This document shows positions 21,473-27,602 of a DNA stretch of 64,000 nucleotides, piece by piece. Location: positions 1-64,000 of IMG/VR virus record IMGVR_UViG_3300020183_000055. One strand, 5' to 3'. Numbering within the stretch: position 1 is the first letter of the stretch; every line of letters starts with the position of its first letter. This stretch comes from an uncultured virus (IMG/VR IMGVR_UViG_3300020183_000055) (lineage: Duplodnaviria; Heunggongvirae; Uroviricota; Caudoviricetes). The notes beneath the pieces were generated by a model. That model was not told where the DNA came from, made no database searches, and saw only the letters and a program-made list of their open reading frames with translations. Made by a program: the position numbers and the translations under genes.

Positions 21473-22153
21473 TCAGATTTTCTGAATTTCTAAAATTTTC
21501 TCCAACGTGTAACCCAGAAGACTAGATTTGGTAAAGTTCGCCTTTATACGGATGGGATTTGATTTTGATTCGGAAACCAGTTCAAGGTCCAAGAAATCCG
21601 AACTATTTTCCTCTGGTATGTTTTGAGTATTTGCAAAGGATGATTTTTTTAAAGTTCGTCCAGTCCAAATCAACAAAGTTAAATTTGCCAATTTCGAATC
21701 CAAAATTTTCACAATTTGATTTGTTGTTAATATTTCCAACTTTATTCCGAGAAATCCATTAGAACTCGGCGAATAAATGGAAAATAAAGAATATCCAATC
21801 CCTTCCAAAAGTTCTGGGACCGTATCATTCTTTACAGTGAATAAAGGAAAGGATCCAGAATGAAGGTGCTGTTTGAATTTTATTCCACTTTCAACGAAGA
21901 ATCCAATTAGGGTTTCCGCCAGGAATGAATCAGAAAGCTTTCTTCGAAATTTGACATGTAAAGTTGGATTGGGTCCTGCCGCCAATTTTGTTGGCTTGAG
22001 ATCCATCCCAATTTTAAACAAATAATTTTCGAGCTGTATTCCTATTTTACCAACCTGGCTAAAATGTGACATTTCGATTTTATTCTTCAGATGAATTTCT
22101 TCTTCGAAGTTTTCTACAAATCCCGTCAGTAAATCTACCTTGTATTTTGACAT
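21473..22153 (-). CDS. Hypothetical protein
   Basis: 226-aa ORF; no recognisable motif. Confidence 0.6.
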   Translation of the reverse strand: MSKYKVDLLTGFVENFEEEIHLKNKIEMSHFSQVGKIGIQLENYLFKIGMDLKPTKLAAGPNPTLHVKFRRKLSDSFLAETLIGFFVESGIKFKQHLHSGSFPLFTVKNDTVPELLEGIGYSLFSIYSPSSNGFLGIKLEILTTNQIVKILDSKLANLTLLIWTGRTLKKSSFANTQNIPEENSSDFLDLELVSESKSNPIRIKANFTKSSLLGYTLEKILEIQKI

Positions 22154-22186
22154 AAATTAAATGTGATTCAGGTTGACCTGTTTCTT

Positions 22187-22828
22187 TTAATTTGTTTTAG
22201 AATCGGTTTTTTTGAGATTCAGTTGGTTCACAATTTTTTTGTATAAACGATCTATTCCTACACCGGAGTCGAATTTTTTCAATTTTCTGCTTTTGGTGTA
22301 CAGATCGATCAGAGGAGCAGTTTTTTCCGTGTAGGTTTGGAATCTTTTTTTAATTACCTCTGGATCTTTGTCATCCTCACGATTTTCTTTTTCGGCTCTG
22401 GATAAAATCCTATCCGTAGCGGTTTTTTCGTCCAAATCCAAATAGATTGTGTGGCTTAGACCTAATCCCATTTTACCGAGCAAAGAGTCCAACATTCCAG
22501 CCTGTTTAACCGTTCTAGGAAATCCGTCGAGAATGATTCCCATTCCAGGATCTAACTTTTTAAGTTCTTTTCTGAGCATTGATACCATCGTTCCATCGTC
22601 AATATACTCGCCCTTTGCAATCTTCGCTTTTAATTCTGGGTCCTTCGATTTTCGAATCAAATCCCCAGTAGAAATATGATTGTAACCTTCTTTTTCAGAA
22701 AGTCTTTTTGAGAAGGTCCCTTTCCCGGATCCAGGAGGGCCCATGATTACTAAGATCTTGCCCTGAAAATCAGGAAGCTCTCTTTCGTGAAGGTGGACAA
22801 ATTCGTCGAATTTTTTAACTGTGCTCAT
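22187..22828 (-). CDS. adk: Adenylate kinase (short LID) with an N-terminal capsid-targeting-like leader
   Basis: GPPGSGKGT, HISTGDLIR, ILDGFPRTVKQA and REDD; likely start MSTVKKFDEFVHLHE at 22828. Confidence 0.9.
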   Translation of the reverse strand: MSTVKKFDEFVHLHERELPDFQGKILVIMGPPGSGKGTFSKRLSEKEGYNHISTGDLIRKSKDPELKAKIAKGEYIDDGTMVSMLRKELKKLDPGMGIILDGFPRTVKQAGMLDSLLGKMGLGLSHTIYLDLDEKTATDRILSRAEKENREDDKDPEVIKKRFQTYTEKTAPLIDLYTKSRKLKKFDSGVGIDRLYKKIVNQLNLKKTDSKTN

Positions 22829-23033
22829 ATTTAATAATCGTATTTTGAATTGGGAATCTGAAAAGGGGAACTCTTCTTGAATCTTGGCTTTCTTGATAAA
22901 CCTCATAAAAATTGTAATGGGCTTGAGAAAGTTGAATGGTCATGATTTCAGAGTACACTCCTCTTAGATGTCGTGATTCAGATTCTACCTGGAGGGTGTG
23001 TTTTTTGGTGTTAAAGATTAAAATATTTGTCAT
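22815..23033 (-). CDS. Hypothetical protein
   Basis: 72-aa ORF between nrdA-C and adk. Confidence 0.5.
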   Translation of the reverse strand: MTNILIFNTKKHTLQVESESRHLRGVYSEIMTIQLSQAHYNFYEVYQESQDSRRVPLFRFPIQNTIIKYEHS

Positions 23034-23054: not shown

Positions 23055-24851
23055 TTAAGATCCACAGGCGATACAATCATCTGGGTTGTCCAAACTACAA
23101 CTTAAATCTTCTAAAGTTTGGTTGGCCAGAACTTGTAATTCTTCATTTGGGGTTTCCAAAGTCTTTTTGAAAACTTTGGGCTCTTCTTTTTTTGGTATTG
23201 TCTGATATTTAGAAACGTCTATCCCAAGTCCAGTCATGGCGTCTACAGCGGACTTAGTGCGAAGATAATACATGCCAGTTTTCAAACCCAATTTCCAAGA
23301 ATGGAAATGGGCGGCAGTTAATTTGGCAGCGTTAACACCTTCAATGAAAAGGTTGAGAGATTGGGATTGACAAATGAATCTACCTCTTTCTGCAGACATC
23401 TCAATAAGATCTTTCTGTTTGATTTCCCAAACCGTTTTGTAAACCTCCTTGATGTCATCGGGGATGTTTGGAATGTTTTGAACAGATCCTTTGTGGATGA
23501 TAATCAAATTTTTAACATCTTCATTCCAAAGACCCAAATTGATTAGATCTTTCACAAGATATTTGTTGATGATGATAAATTCTCCCGACAGGGTTCTTCT
23601 TGTATAAATATTGGAGGTAAAAGGTTCAAATGCTTCATTGTTTCCCATAATTTGAGCTGTGCTCGCGGTTGGCATGGGTGCCAGAAGCAAAGAATTTCTG
23701 GATCCGTGTTTCATCACAGATTTTCTCAATTTATCCCAGTCCCATCTACCAGAAAGTTCGGAATCTGTAACGTCCCAGAGGTTAAATTGGAATTTGCCTT
23801 GGCAAAGAGGAGATCCAGGAAAACTCTCATAATGACCTTCTTTCTTAGCCAAATCCACAGAAGCAGACATAGAAGCGAAGTAAATGGTTTCAAAAATTTC
23901 AGAGTTGATTTTTCTTGCCTCTGGAGATGTAAATGGCAATCCCATAATGGCAAAAAGATCAGCTAAACCCTGAATTCCAATGCCAATTGGGCGGTGTCTG
24001 AAATTCGAATTTTTAGTTTCTGGGGTTGGATAAAAATTAACATCAATTACCTTGTTCAAATTTAATGTTGTTTGGTAGGCAACATTGTAAAGCAATTCGT
24101 GATCTACCTCGCATTTTTTTCTGGCAATCTTGGAGGTTCTTGCGTCTGTAGATTTCAGAAACTTATTCACCGCGATCGAAGCCAAGTTACAAACTGCAGT
24201 TTCGTCTTTACTGGCATATTCTATAATTTCTGTGCACAAATTAGAAGATTTGATTGTACCTAAATTTTGTTGGTTGGATTTCCTGTTGGCCGCATCCTTA
24301 TACAAAATATATGGGGTTCCGGTTTCAATTTGTGAATCCAAAATCTTGCCCCACAAATCCCGGGCCTTAATTGTTTTTCTGGCCTTCCCAGCCTCTTCTG
24401 CTTCCAAATAAGCGGCATTGAATTCCTTTCCAAATTTTTCATGTAAATTGGGAACTTCGGATGGAGAAAACAAAGACCAGGTAGAATCCTCGTGAACCCT
24501 CTCCATAAATAAATCGGGAATCCACAAAGCCAAAAACAAATCTCTGGCTCTTCTTTCTTCTTTACCTGTATTTTTTCTTAAGTCCAGAAAATCTTCAACA
24601 TCAGCATGCCAAGGTTCTAGATAAATGGCGAAGCTTCCCTTTCTCTTTCCACCCCCATTGTGAACAATTGATACATTCGTAGAGTAATTAGGAATCTCAG
24701 AAATTCGCAGATCGTAAACTTTTCCTTCCCTACCTGATATTTTTTCTACTTTTGTTACCTTATTGAATTTCAATTTAGAGACAGAAAGTACAGATGATTC
24801 CTCATGGAGCTCTCCATCCTGTAGAGGGTGATGTAAAAAGATGTTTGCCAT
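23055..24851 (-). CDS. nrdA: Ribonucleotide reductase class Ia alpha subunit, C-terminal fragment, preceded by the split-intein C part (65 aa)
   Basis: KVYDLRI...IVHN|GGGKRKGSFAIYLEPWH; SSNLCTEI (thiyl Cys), VCNLAS, APMPTAST, LKTGMYYLR and C-terminal CxxC. Confidence 0.95.
   Translation of the reverse strand: MANIFLHHPLQDGELHEESSVLSVSKLKFNKVTKVEKISGREGKVYDLRISEIPNYSTNVSIVHNGGGKRKGSFAIYLEPWHADVEDFLDLRKNTGKEERRARDLFLALWIPDLFMERVHEDSTWSLFSPSEVPNLHEKFGKEFNAAYLEAEEAGKARKTIKARDLWGKILDSQIETGTPYILYKDAANRKSNQQNLGTIKSSNLCTEIIEYASKDETAVCNLASIAVNKFLKSTDARTSKIARKKCEVDHELLYNVAYQTTLNLNKVIDVNFYPTPETKNSNFRHRPIGIGIQGLADLFAIMGLPFTSPEARKINSEIFETIYFASMSASVDLAKKEGHYESFPGSPLCQGKFQFNLWDVTDSELSGRWDWDKLRKSVMKHGSRNSLLLAPMPTASTAQIMGNNEAFEPFTSNIYTRRTLSGEFIIINKYLVKDLINLGLWNEDVKNLIIIHKGSVQNIPNIPDDIKEVYKTVWEIKQKDLIEMSAERGRFICQSQSLNLFIEGVNAAKLTAAHFHSWKLGLKTGMYYLRTKSAVDAMTGLGIDVSKYQTIPKKEEPKVFKKTLETPNEELQVLANQTLEDLSCSLDNPDDCIACGS
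24657..24851 (-). other. Split intein/Hint C-terminal part (IntC); the +1 residue is Gly
   Basis: Block F (VYDL) and block G (IVHN) followed by GGG. Confidence 0.85.
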
Positions 24852-24883
24852 TTTATGAATTTTATTTTTACTTTGAAATAATT

Positions 24884-26071
24884 TTACATTTTTAGTAAAA
24901 TATCGCTATCCGTTAATTTTTTTGCCTCAATCCACTCTGCTTCTACAATTCCCATAGATAACTTTTCTTCTAAATTGTCAATAGATGATCCGTTTCTAAC
25001 AACTAAAAAAAGATGATCTTCTGTTACTATGTTTTCTCCATCTTCCGTTTGAACTGATATTAAATTTTTATCTCCAATGGGGTAATCCAAATTTTGAATT
25101 ACCTCGTGTTTATTACCATCTGAAGAGATAACAAAATCCCCAGGATATATTTCATCAATTCTAGAGAATCCGCCTTCCATTTTAATCAAAGTTTCACCAA
25201 CAAAACATTGGTCAACATACCTAGCGGTTTCATTATAAACTCTAAGCATAGGTATAATCCCATTTGATTTACCATTTGTTCCTCTGATGTAAGAATCTGT
25301 TGCTCTAACATTGTGAATTGCCAAACCAATTCCCCCGGCATGCTGAGAAATCAAGGCAACGTCGGAAAGAGTTTTGTAAATTCCGGGGATAGAATCTTCC
25401 GACATGGTTAACAAGAAACAGGAAGACAATTGAGGCTTTTTCGTTCCGGCGTTAAAAAGTGTCGGAGTTGCGTGAGTCATCATGTGATTTGAAAGCAACT
25501 CGTAGGTCTTAATCGTGTTTTTGATGTCATCCCCCCAAATTCCAACCGCTACTCTCATGTACATGTGTTGAGGGGTTTCTGCCGGTTTGCCGAGCATCTT
25601 GAGAAGGTAACTTTTCTCGAGTGTTTTAAAACCAAAATATTCGAAATTAAAATCCCGATCGTGAATAATGGCTGAATCCAAAGTGTCTTTATGTTCCATC
25701 ACCACCCGATAGGTTTCTTCGGAGATCAAACCAGATTCCAATCCGGTTTCGGGATCGATGTAGGAAAACAAATCCTGGATAGTTTCCGAGAATTTTTTCT
25801 TTGTAGATTTGTGCAATCTTGAAACCGCTATTCTAGAAGCCAAGATGGAGTAGTCTGGATGTCGTGGAATCAAAGAAGCAGCTGTTTCTGCTGCTAAATT
25901 ATCCAGTTCCCAAGTTGAAATTCCATCATAAATACCGGCAATAACTTTTTGTGCTATCTCCATAGCATCTACGAAGTCAGAATTTAATCCATAGGTTACC
26001 TTTCGAATCCGATTTGAGATTTTATCAAATCTGACTGCTTCTTTCGAACCATCTCTCTTTTTTACAAACAT
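24884..26071 (-). CDS. nrdA: Ribonucleotide reductase class Ia alpha subunit, N-terminal fragment (288 aa) fused to the split-intein N part (107 aa)
   Basis: ATP cone (MFVKKRDG), [30 protein letters not shown] and [14 protein letters not shown]. Confidence 0.95.
24887..25207 (-). other. Split intein/Hint N-terminal part (IntN)
   Basis: Block [23 protein letters not shown]; block [11 protein letters not shown] (TxxH); [14 protein letters not shown], then a stop. Confidence 0.9.
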
Positions 26072-26086
26072 TTTTATGAATTTTTT

Positions 26087-27070
26087 TTAGAAATCTACAT
26101 CCAAATCAAAAGCATCGGATGATGCATTGAGAACTCCCGCCTTCTGATATTCAGCCACTCTTTTTTCAAAGAAGTTGGTTTTACCCTGTAAAGAAATGTT
26201 GGTCATGAAGTCAAATGGATTTTCCGACCCATATACCTTCGAACATCCCAAAGAAACCAAAAGTCTATCTGTTACAAATTCCAGGTATTGACTCATAAGA
26301 TCAGAGTTCATTCCAATCAGTCTCACCGGAAGAGATTCTAAAATAAATTCTTTTTCGATGGCCAAGGCGCTGACAATAATTTCCTTGATTCTCTCTTCCG
26401 AAACTTTGTTTGAAAGATATTTATTGTGAAGAAGAACAGCGAAGTCACAGTGCAGTCCCTCGTCCCGTGAAATTAGTTCATTGGAAAAAGAAAGACCTGG
26501 CATCAGACCTCTTTTCTTCAACCAAAAGATTGAACAGAAAGATCCAGAAAAGAAAATTCCTTCTACTGCAGCAAAAGCAATCAATCTCTCTTGAAAATGC
26601 GGCGAGTTAATCCATTTCAGCGCCCAATCTGCTTTTTTCTTCACGGCAGGAATAGTTTCAATGGCGTGAAATAGACGGTGCTTTTCCTGGGGGTCAGAAA
26701 TATAGGTATCAATCAACAAAGAATAGGTTTCAGAGTGAATGTTTTCCATCATGATTTGAAACCCGTAGAAAAATTTTGCTTCCGTGTATTGAACTTCTCT
26801 GACAAAGTTCTCTGCCAAATTTTCATTCACGATTCCATCCGAAGCTGCGAAGAAGGCCAAAACGTGTTTGATGAAATGTTTTTCATCCTCGTTCAATTCG
26901 TTTCTCCAATGATCCAGATCTGAAGAAAGATCAATTTCTTCGGCAGTCCAAATGCATGCCATTTGATTCTTATACTGAGACCAAAGTTCATCGTGTTGAA
27001 TTGGGAAAATGACAAATCGATCTGGATTTTCTTGTAGGATCGGTTCTGGTAACGAATATTCTTCCATCAT
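26087..27070 (-). CDS. nrdB: Ribonucleotide reductase class Ia beta subunit
   Basis: [39 protein letters not shown] and SRDEGLH. Confidence 0.97.
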
Positions 27071-27113: not shown

Positions 27114-27602
27114 TTAATATCCGCCTGGTCTATTTTGTCTCTCTACGTTATGCTTATTCTTAGCAACATAGTAGTTAGTAATCATTTCAGGGGTTAATCC
27201 AATTGCAATGGCTTCATTCATTATGAAATGTAACTTGTCTATCCATTCATATCTAAGTTCTTTCAATTCCTCTTCAGTTAAATCCGAAAGGGATCTTGCC
27301 ATTGCTTCTTTGTGTTTTGATTTCCAAGGCTTCCAACAGGAAGGATAAGTGTGGATTCCGGTAAGAGCATTTTGCATTTCCCTGTCCTCGTCTCGGATTG
27401 CTTCCTCGTTCCAATCAATAAATTCTTTTAACTTTCCAATTGAAGACCGGATCTCTTCAAAGTTGTATCCATATACTTCTTCTTGGATCGATTTCTGCAT
27501 GTTATAGATTAGTTCTAAAGCATCATTTCCTTTTTCTCTTAAATCTTGATAGTCGTTATTGACATCAATCTGTGCACATTGTTGAAAATTCTTATTCTCC
27601 AT
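27114..27602 (-). CDS. Dimeric dUTPase/dCTPase (MazG-like all-alpha NTP pyrophosphatase)
   Basis: [17 protein letters not shown] and KNKHNVERQ...GY; adjacent to nrdB. Confidence 0.7.

Follow-up and report, generated by a model that had tools for sequence, protein, structure and literature searches.

How does an enzyme become whole when its gene is cut in two by an intein that lacks the nucleophile on which protein splicing normally relies? This question is raised by nrdA, the gene for the large subunit (R1) of class Ia ribonucleotide reductase (RNR), in a lake-water phage (IMGVR_UViG_3300020183_000055). In the 64,000-nt stretch of this record that was analysed (the window), nrdA consists of two adjacent minus-strand genes, each with half of a split intein, and the first residue after the intein (+1) is Gly rather than Cys, Ser or Thr. 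As far as sequence can tell, the element is a true intein, old and naturally split, of the type described for 'fractured genes'. The evidence partly supports a broader reading, in which true inteins, here naturally split, would carry out junction chemistry like that of bacterial intein-like (BIL) domains in the specificity loop of RNR.

Gene layout, insertion site and intein identity

Gene 1, the open reading frame (ORF) 26071-24884 on the minus strand (395 aa), encodes NrdA residues 1-288, ending in ARYVDQ, followed by the 107-aa N-terminal half of the intein (IntN) and a stop codon. Its protein reads, in order, NETARYVDQ/CFVGETLIK...VTEDHLFL...ILLKM, where the slash marks a junction. Gene 2 (ORF 24851-23055, minus strand, 598 aa) lies in another frame and begins MANIFLHHPLQDGELHEE; its 65-aa C-terminal intein half (IntC, VYDL...SIVHN) ends in KVYDLRISEIPNYSTNVSIVHN and is followed by GGGKRKGSFAIYLEPWH and the rest of R1. 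The spacer from the stop of gene 1 to the start of gene 2 is exactly 32 nt, AATTATTTCAAAGTAAAAATAAAATTCATAAA. At the C-junction, the codons CAC AAT/GGG GGT GGA specify His-Asn/Gly-Gly-Gly, and the C-extein start GGGKRKG stands directly after the VHN of IntC. When both intein halves (107 + 65 residues) are taken out, 288 + 533 residues remain, giving an 821-aa NrdA with the sequence YVDQGGGKRKG. The features of the locus, with positions in the window, are as follows.

26087..27070, minus strand: nrdB, RNR small subunit (Pfam Ribonuc_red_sm, E 1.1e-109), directly upstream, 15 nt before gene 1
26073..26082, minus strand: AATTCATAAA, just upstream of the gene 1 start codon
25208..26071, minus strand: N-extein, NrdA 1-288 (ATP-cone, all-alpha domain, start of the barrel, Cys of SSCFLL), ending ARYVDQ at Gln288
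24887..25207, minus strand: IntN, 107 aa, with Cys1 (CFVGET), block B VTEDHLFL and a net charge of -13; stop codon at 24884-24886
24852..24883, minus strand: 32-nt spacer with a second AATTCATAAA (24852-24861), without ORF or endonuclease gene
24657..24851, minus strand: IntC, 65 aa, with an N-terminal extension of about 25 aa (L-x-H-x3-DGE-x3-E) and a canonical part containing block F VYDL, PNYST and block G SIVHN
24648..24656, minus strand: +1 to +3 of the C-extein, GGG GGT GGA, Gly289-291 of loop 2
23055..24656, minus strand: C-extein, NrdA 289-821 (GGGKRKGSFAIYLEPWH..., SSNLCTEI thiyl-radical site, GMYYLRT, C-terminal CIACGS) and stop codon

A first-pass annotation of this DNA, made from the sequence alone, had described a naturally split Hint/intein with Gly at +1, and that anatomy is correct: a family profile matches both IntN and IntC. 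ORF and codon reading bore out the rest of its description (two genes with their coordinates, the 32-bp gap, the change of frame and the halves of 107 and 65 aa), and the 821-aa product that it expected upon excision, restoring YVDQGGGKRKG, matches the uninterrupted 821-aa NrdA of a relative, L007. Pfam matches on ORF 1 cover the ATP-cone, the all-alpha domain and the first 72 positions of the RNR barrel, and those on ORF 2 cover barrel positions 67-523. The extein catalytic motifs SSCFLL, SSNLCTEI, GMYYLRT and CIACGS are intact.

L007 is the closest relative (97% identity over the N-extein), and its uninterrupted protein, which reads YVDQGGGKRKG, is the only PF02867 match in its genome (88% complete). 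It aligns residue for residue with human RRM1 (3hnc) here, which sets the break at Gln288/Gly289; by this alignment, the insertion site maps to specificity loop 2, between these two residues. Cryo-EM work on human RNR describes both residues as part of loop 2, the Gln288 side chain as recognising the substrate base, the Gly289 carbonyl as contacting the dATP effector, and Arg293 as closing the active site (PMC5819950). A permanent nick or a permanent insert would therefore be costly at this position. Among 80 viral loci related to ORF 1 that were classed by the sequence pattern at the site, 5 are interrupted (YVDQ/CF...), 53, including L007, carry an uninterrupted YVDQGGG(K or R)RKG, and 22 more distant loci are not resolved by pattern. 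The element is thus an in-frame insertion at a conserved host site with exactly restored intein-free alleles, as a class 1 intein should be. Two other sources of a nucleophile were considered and rejected. A shifted splice junction, for example before a Ser or Thr of PNYSTNVS, would supply one, but only exact removal from Cys1 to Asn restores the empty alleles; Ser at +8 could act as a surrogate, but P0019 reads GGGKRAGA.

General profiles recognise the window halves just below their thresholds (Pfam Hint, 27.1 bits against a cut-off of 29.7; TIGR01445, 16.7 against 24.5). When a profile is built from 12 contiguous same-site inteins, IntN matches its positions 1-107 (63.4 bits) and IntC its positions 105-149 (18.6 bits); the split point falls at about position 107 of this 149-position profile of contiguous mini-inteins. 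The best PDB sequence match is the gp41-1 intein (6qaz, E 0.004). An AlphaFold2 model of the contiguous relative L083, rather than of the window halves, has a pLDDT of 92.9 and matches the gp41-1 intein 6riz (E 7.3e-8, TM 0.86) and the Clostridium thermocellum BIL 2lwy (E 8.1e-8, TM 0.83) about equally, so the fold does not decide between intein and BIL; by sequence, the window element matches the gp41-1 intein and not the BIL. The family profile, the PDB match and the relative's model together indicate a Hint fold with splicing blocks A, B, F and G, and Cys1 (CFVGET), the block-B Thr-x-x-His (VTEDH) and the C-terminal His-Asn (SIVHN) are all present. The departure from a class 1 intein is at +1 to +3, where Gly-Gly-Gly stands in place of Cys, Ser or Thr.

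BILs typically occur in variable parts of bacterial proteins rather than at conserved positions of essential enzymes, and they are not known to be associated with homing endonucleases. The family to which the window element belongs differs in each respect, since it lies in a conserved catalytic loop, has empty alleles and includes both contiguous alleles bearing LAGLIDADG domains and split alleles bearing an endonuclease gene. With the type A BIL of C. thermocellum (2LWY) it shares the Hint fold, Cys1, the C-terminal His-Asn and the missing +1 nucleophile, which is how type A is defined in the review PMC4031507.

The split locus is not an assembly error. It is identical in two other IMG/VR contigs, L003 and L004, and 18 lake-water sequencing runs contain at least 95% of the sampled words of 24560-25260. 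These 18 runs are from 2018 and may be one campaign, and 7 may be the source of the record; the Logan contigs that we compared come from four runs not flagged as source. One 7,684-nt Logan contig covers all of 24560-25260 with a single substitution (25147 A>G), and a second covers 24560-25177. Neither has an indel or joint, and the stop, spacer and Gly codons are unchanged; no Cys, Ser or Thr codon follows CAC AAT and no fused ORF appears, as the first-pass annotation had expected of the junction in independent reads. The identity of the locus in other contigs and runs contradicts an artefact. Among the runs with the stretch, no RNA run was listed, and two labelled 'RNA?' are probably DNA and cover it only in part.

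The 10-mer AATTCATAAA has three exact copies in the window, two of them directly before the two start codons. It had been put forward that this shared start context marks the split as evolved; the repeat is real, but says little by itself, since the relatives L005 and L006 do not have an identical AATTCATAAA ahead of both starts. A promoter and terminator scan of the window found no terminator-like site in the spacer (24852-24883), which also has no ORF; the scan performed at chance level (15 found against 13.4 expected, and 5 against 3.4). The order nrdB (27070-26087), 15 nt, gene 1, 32 nt, gene 2, all on the minus strand, sits in a nucleotide-metabolism block of the window (21473-22906 and 27114-27602), with an adenylate kinase at 22187-22906, a MazG-like NTP pyrophosphohydrolase/dUTPase at 27114-27602 and, at 21473-22153, a 226-aa ORF with no family match.

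Glycine at +1 across the same-site family

A search for Hint insertions at DQ/GG, proposed in the first-pass annotation, found the split and the +1 Gly to be conserved but did not tie one to the other: judged from the sequences collected, Gly at +1 appears to be a property of the whole intein family at the NrdA loop-2 site and not of the split version. The best 120 matches to IntC plus 20 extein residues comprise 78 with an intein at the site and 42 without. His-Asn is followed by Gly in 78/78 of the intein-bearing matches (GGG in 76, GG in 2), and the N-junction is (D or N)Q/C in 43/43 resolved cases. Contiguous same-site forms among these are mini-inteins of 147-212 aa and larger inteins of 355-364 aa, and several matches have a LAGLIDADG domain (Pfam PF14528). 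The profile of 12 contiguous members, searched among longer proteins, gave 383 matches, of which the best 120 are all NrdA. HN/G is found in 178 of the 179 profile matches that reach the intein C-end (276 proteins), whether contiguous, endonuclease-bearing or split; the sole exception is a different intein at another site (PTAS/.../TAQI) with Thr at +1. None of the 276 collected proteins has Ser, Thr or Cys at +1 of the loop-2 site. Contigs from metagenome-assembled genomes (MAGs) of giant viruses carry inteins of 356-369 aa that likewise read HN/GGG.

Other inteins in the same proteins serve as an internal control. Seventy of these proteins hold a second intein at SSNL/.../CTEI with Cys at +1, and the second split intein of L006 has Thr at +1. 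That these inteins keep their nucleophile indicates that its absence is specific to the loop-2 site and stems neither from the genes as such nor from gene calling.

Inteins at this site have been tabulated before. In supplementary file 3 of Green, Novikova & Belfort 2018 (PMC5784728), the CroV RNR intein (from InBase) appears at the same site with the C-extein SGRRKG and hence the canonical Ser at +1, whereas the intein-1 entries of Pandoravirus inopinatum, P. dulcis and P. salinus have an N-extein ending in ARYVDQ and a C-extein that begins GGGKRKGAF, with Gly at +1. The word 'glycine' is absent from the main text of that paper, so that Gly at +1 is tabulated there and not discussed. These giant-virus inteins have the same insertion point, YV(D or N)Q/C...VHN/, but are contiguous rather than split. 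A further candidate is the Azotobacter nrdA intein (aa 442-800), described with a LAGLIDADG_3 endonuclease and beside a class II RNR in a paper whose account does not state the +1 residue (PMC4465626); its position fits the loop-2 site, as window residue 288 aligns with position 443 of NF005544. In our literature search, which had subscription journals outside its coverage, no paper discussing or testing an intein with Gly at +1 was found.

Several relatives add variation around this pattern. At L006 4001-8490 (an IMG/VR contig of 180,758 nt, G002, and a 72%-identical relative), nrdA is in three genes with two split inteins, the loop-2 intein ending HN/GGGRRKG and the second reading PTAS/CLVPES ... 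MVSHN/TAQIMG. P0001 (753 aa) is 99% identical to the start of window gene 2 and has an extra contiguous mini-intein of about 155 aa (PTAS/...HN/TAQIMGN), which the 598-aa window gene does not have, and intein presence is thus polymorphic between very close genomes. In P0021 and P0038 the loop is one residue shorter and the junction reads HN/GGKRKG, with an N-junction WINQ/C in P0021; Gly at +1 therefore also occurs in NrdA of the shorter-loop type, to which CroV, with its Ser, belongs. A contig of 568,603 nt from a Candidatus Peribacteria MAG (L084, 1321-2058) has tandem Hint domains, each ending in LVHN; KNG comes next, and after it the CFLxGT of the following domain. This is a BIL-like array in which Lys stands at +1 and no host enzyme is recognisable.

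Searches with narrower queries returned little. IntC alone, searched with phmmer against 1.8 billion representatives, gave 3 matches at E <= 0.001, the query being too short to map relatives in other host proteins. A contig scan with a narrower alignment gave 3 loci, of which only one is a Gly+1 NrdA intein, namely L083, a mini-intein of the 149-aa type located on a MAG contig of 3 kb. A tblastn search of 50,697 deposited phages with IntC plus 20 extein residues gave 9 records, mainly matching the extein, and no IntC-covering match in a named phage; the match to LR756502.1 extends into the intein end, and that sequence is intein-less.

The invariance of the +1 Gly bears on a ligation route without Hint precedent, for example transfer of the Cys1 thioester acyl group to the Asn-Gly backbone nitrogen, giving an imide as the branched intermediate, and then Asn cyclisation to leave Gln-Gly. 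S-acyl-Cys peptides are reported to undergo thioester-to-backbone-imide transfer and backbone cleavage, yielding intein-like 'spliced' peptides with yields of 25% with Gly, 7-8% with Ala and none with Pro or Val (PMC11775684). However, the imide described there arises at pH 8-10 on the amide of the acylated Cys itself, in peptides only, and not at a distant residue; its extension to this intein is pure inference, and Gly289-291 is conserved in intein-less NrdA too, so its invariance need not reflect the intein. We regard such a route as improbable.

The split clade: age, selection and endonuclease loss

Dassa et al. 2009 (PMC2677866) described the natural split inteins of 'fractured genes', namely IMPDH-1, gp41-1, NrdJ-1 and NrdA-2. 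The window locus resembles these in having IntN and IntC on separate adjacent genes with their own starts, in its phage nucleotide-metabolism setting, and in having relatives with an endonuclease-like ORF between the halves. The window itself has no free-standing homing-endonuclease gene there, a condition that the same paper describes for one fractured-gene locus, gp41-7. It differs in that the published inteins have Ser or Cys at +1, in that the published NrdA split inteins lie just N-terminal of the thiyl-radical Cys rather than in loop 2 (PMC2677866), and in that fractured-gene IntC is about 40 aa long, compared to 65 aa with a conserved extra N-terminal segment in the window.

The split form is widespread among relatives. 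We found 50 N-half clusters with the IntN region, of 395-401 aa apart from one 311-aa fragment, with IntN identities of 40-99%; Cys1, Phe2 and the block-B Thr..His are kept in 50/50. Nineteen C-half clusters begin at the IntC Met (identity 53-99%), and block-F Asp, PNY.T and VHN/GGG are invariant in 20/20 aligned IntC sequences. This alignment of 20 leaves out the 64-aa fragment P0171, the only decayed member, in which the IntC fragment is out of frame just before PNY...VHN; a frameshift or an assembly error may account for the loss of frame. In a tree of 10 of the 50 split IntN, the N-parts of 10 contiguous same-site inteins and 6 split IntN of other host proteins, the split NrdA IntN form one clade (support 94/90), which groups weakly (68/85) with contiguous NrdA inteins, apart from IMPDH split inteins.

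This pattern of conservation bears on the possibility that the intein does no chemistry and that the reassembled Hint domain stays in loop 2 as a non-covalent clamp, zipping the two chains together. In Aeromonas phage Aeh1, nrdA is likewise cut into two genes by a mobile endonuclease, mobE, and the tails of NrdA-a and NrdA-b assemble an active two-chain RNR (Crona et al. 2011, PMC3045599); natural split inteins, too, bind tightly. The Aeh1 gene as described has no intein, however, and its short tails are interaction domains that remain attached, whereas the window junctions carry complete, conserved intein catalytic residues. A clamp needs no Cys1, block-B His or terminal Asn, yet these are invariant in 50/50 IntN and 20/20 IntC while the rest falls to 40% identity, and they are also invariant in 178 contiguous relatives. 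In addition, loop 2 lies between the specificity and catalytic sites, and a domain of 17 kDa lodged there, or of about 40 kDa for the contiguous relatives of 355-369 aa, would be expected to upset regulation. A clamp is accordingly hard to credit, and we give it only a small chance.

Selection was compared between the window and L006, both split, as the proportions of nonsynonymous (pN) and synonymous (pS) differences only, with no dN/dS because synonymous divergence (dS) is saturated.

N-extein: pN 0.128, pS 0.792
C-extein: pN 0.176, pS 0.866
IntN: pN 0.343, pS 0.809
IntC: pN 0.296, pS 0.730

In all four segments pN is well below pS, which shows that the enzyme and both intein halves have been under purifying selection while split. 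These values also bear on whether the locus is a dead gene or an artefact, the artefact being an error of sequencing or assembly and the dead gene a pseudogene decaying in a phage that depends on the RNR of its host. The source record is an IMG/VR virus contig of 74.5 kb with a CheckV completeness of 27%, phage RNR is dispensable in principle, and one decayed IntC fragment, P0171, exists. On the other side, the identical sequence recurs without indels in other contigs and runs, the split is conserved over 50 clusters, and extein pN is far below pS with all catalytic motifs kept. A dead gene or artefact is very improbable, and the earlier view that the split is evolved and not an error is upheld by the 50 clusters and by the contigs of other runs.

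The first-pass annotation had also remarked that no endonuclease lies between the genes, which is true of the window but appears to be a secondary loss, as relatives keep an ORF of about 300 aa there. In L006 the halves flank an ORF of 297 aa whose end lies one base ahead of the IntC start; it matches DUF7487 (E 3.4e-15) and, weakly, phrog_3339 'homing endonuclease' (E 1.2e-4). A search with the IntN alignment gave 32 loci, of which 25 were inspected, the others being L090 (a duplicate of L089) and L112, L113 and L116-L119 (a 25%-identity group). The gaps from IntN stop to IntC start were as follows.

934-941 nt: L091; L092/L071/L093; L096/L098 (L093 is on the same contig as L006)
32 nt: L089 (window type; L090 is the same locus on another contig)
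2 nt: L094/L095

The L097 contig ends ahead of the second gene. Within the CFVPETQ subgroup, some loci have the endonuclease gene and others do not, so the gene was lost more than once, and the 32-nt spacer of the window is best read from these gaps as a secondary loss of an intervening putative homing-endonuclease gene. In other host proteins, the closest relatives of IntN are the split inteins of IMPDH (VGIGPG/CF...VHN/S(I or V)CTTR; 25-33% identity, Ser at +1). In the viral contigs L101, L102, L104, L111 and L115, the gap between the IMPDH halves ranges from 0 to about 1,020 nt, so that endonuclease-bearing and endonuclease-free forms both occur, as in NrdA.

At 65 aa, the IntC exceeds the 40-aa IMPDH-type IntC by about 25 aa. 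The N-terminal extension (window 24777-24851) has the pattern L-x-H-x3-DGE-x3-E-x3-L, invariant in 20/20 aligned members, and has no counterpart in IMPDH-type IntC or in contiguous Gly+1 mini-inteins. The latter point indicates that handling of Gly at +1 does not in general need the extension; the 25-aa segment, in which a His and DGE are conserved, might represent an adaptation within this split lineage.

Outcomes at a junction without a nucleophile

The review PMC4031507 includes a branched intermediate at a +1 Cys, Ser or Thr in the mechanism of all three intein classes and distinguishes BILs by its absence. Type A BILs, as described there, have His-Asn and can splice, with cleavage products dominating; the route proposed for them starts with an N-terminal thioester; Asn then cyclises, and the amino group released in this way attacks the thioester. 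The review also cites a study on BIL trans-splicing 'without nucleophilic side chains'. The first-pass annotation had described type A BILs as cleaving and as splicing inefficiently, probably by aminolysis, and had named three outcomes for the window genes: trans-splicing by aminolysis, double cleavage and a non-covalent clamp. These are still the main candidates, and sequence does not decide among them. The window element has exactly the residues needed by this route, and Gly provides the least hindered amine possible.

Our preferred reading, held tentatively and at slightly less than an even chance, is that the two genes encode one class Ia RNR large subunit whose exteins are joined by the freed Gly amine in a trans-ligation like that of type A BILs. 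The acidic IntN and the IntC would fold into one Hint domain, association being expected by homology, and would bring the R1 parts together. Cys1 would form a thioester with Gln288 through an N-S acyl shift, and the terminal Asn would cyclise, releasing H2N-Gly-Gly-Gly. The alpha-amine of Gly289 would then attack the thioester directly, there being no +1 side chain for a branched intermediate, and the product would be an 821-aa R1 with a native loop 2. Ligation, rather than cleavage alone, is in our judgement the most likely outcome, and maturation of the enzyme probably proceeds by a chemistry without a demonstrated precedent among true inteins. Genuine, mobile inteins able to ligate without a +1 side chain may constitute a fourth mechanistic class, in which the Gly+1 alpha-amine or backbone nitrogen takes the Cys1 acyl group; here, too, our confidence stops somewhat short of even.

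In another account, the Cys1 thioester is hydrolysed, Asn cyclisation frees GGG..., the intein leaves, and a nicked two-chain R1 is held together by its own fold. The conserved Cys1, T..H and His-Asn exactly suit two cleavages, cleavage is the dominant outcome reported for type A BILs (PMC4031507), and a two-chain NrdA works in phage Aeh1 (PMC3045599; PMC2677866). The nick, however, would break loop 2 at Gln288/Gly289, and it is the backbone of this loop that reads the effector and holds Gln288 in position (PMC5819950). If a nicked enzyme sufficed, intein-free split genes at the site would be expected, yet there are none among the 53 empty-site loci, all of which are continuous. In Aeh1 the essential tails remain on the chains, and nothing in what is described of the break places it in loop 2; here nothing would be left to hold the chains. 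Cleavage alone is therefore unlikely in our view, though it deserves serious consideration.

Several points weigh against ligation by the freed Gly amine. Ligation and cleavage need the same residues, so sequence cannot separate them, and the conservation of Cys1 and His-Asn is equally explained by cleavage without ligation. Canonical inteins in which +1 is mutated to a non-nucleophile usually cleave and do not ligate. The prevalence of cleavage products in type A BILs points the same way, and the Magnetospirillum magnetotacticum BIL is reported to splice only once its Tyr+1 is changed to Cys (PMC4031507). The Ser+1 of CroV, the only InBase-listed intein at the site, indicates that the enzyme tolerates a nucleophile there and may prefer one. 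Selection could act on a weaker activity, since phage RNR is not essential, and dS saturation leaves the selection comparison without a numeric dN/dS. The genome of L083 (G004) has a second RNR alpha, a profile search of 401 Bacteroidota genomes gave a match in 2 only, and in G004 and these 401 genomes no cellular genome with a Gly+1 NrdA as its only RNR was found. Finally, our literature search found no experimental work on any member of the Gly+1 NrdA family.

With Gly after every member of a large family of real inteins, either the +1 nucleophile rule is broken or RNR can work while nicked or with a domain in its specificity loop, and either outcome, a broken rule or a tolerant RNR, would be new. 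If a fourth class of inteins exists, its chemistry would be efficient enough to sustain RNR across phages and giant viruses, and the split form in the window would be a ready-made natural trans-ligation pair that needs no Cys, Ser or Thr at the junction. If ligation occurs, such a pair would offer Cys-free, near-traceless trans-ligation with a Gly junction, usable under oxidising conditions. For the phage itself, we speculate that the position of the intein in loop 2 might allow maturation to gate the substrate-specificity control of its enzyme.

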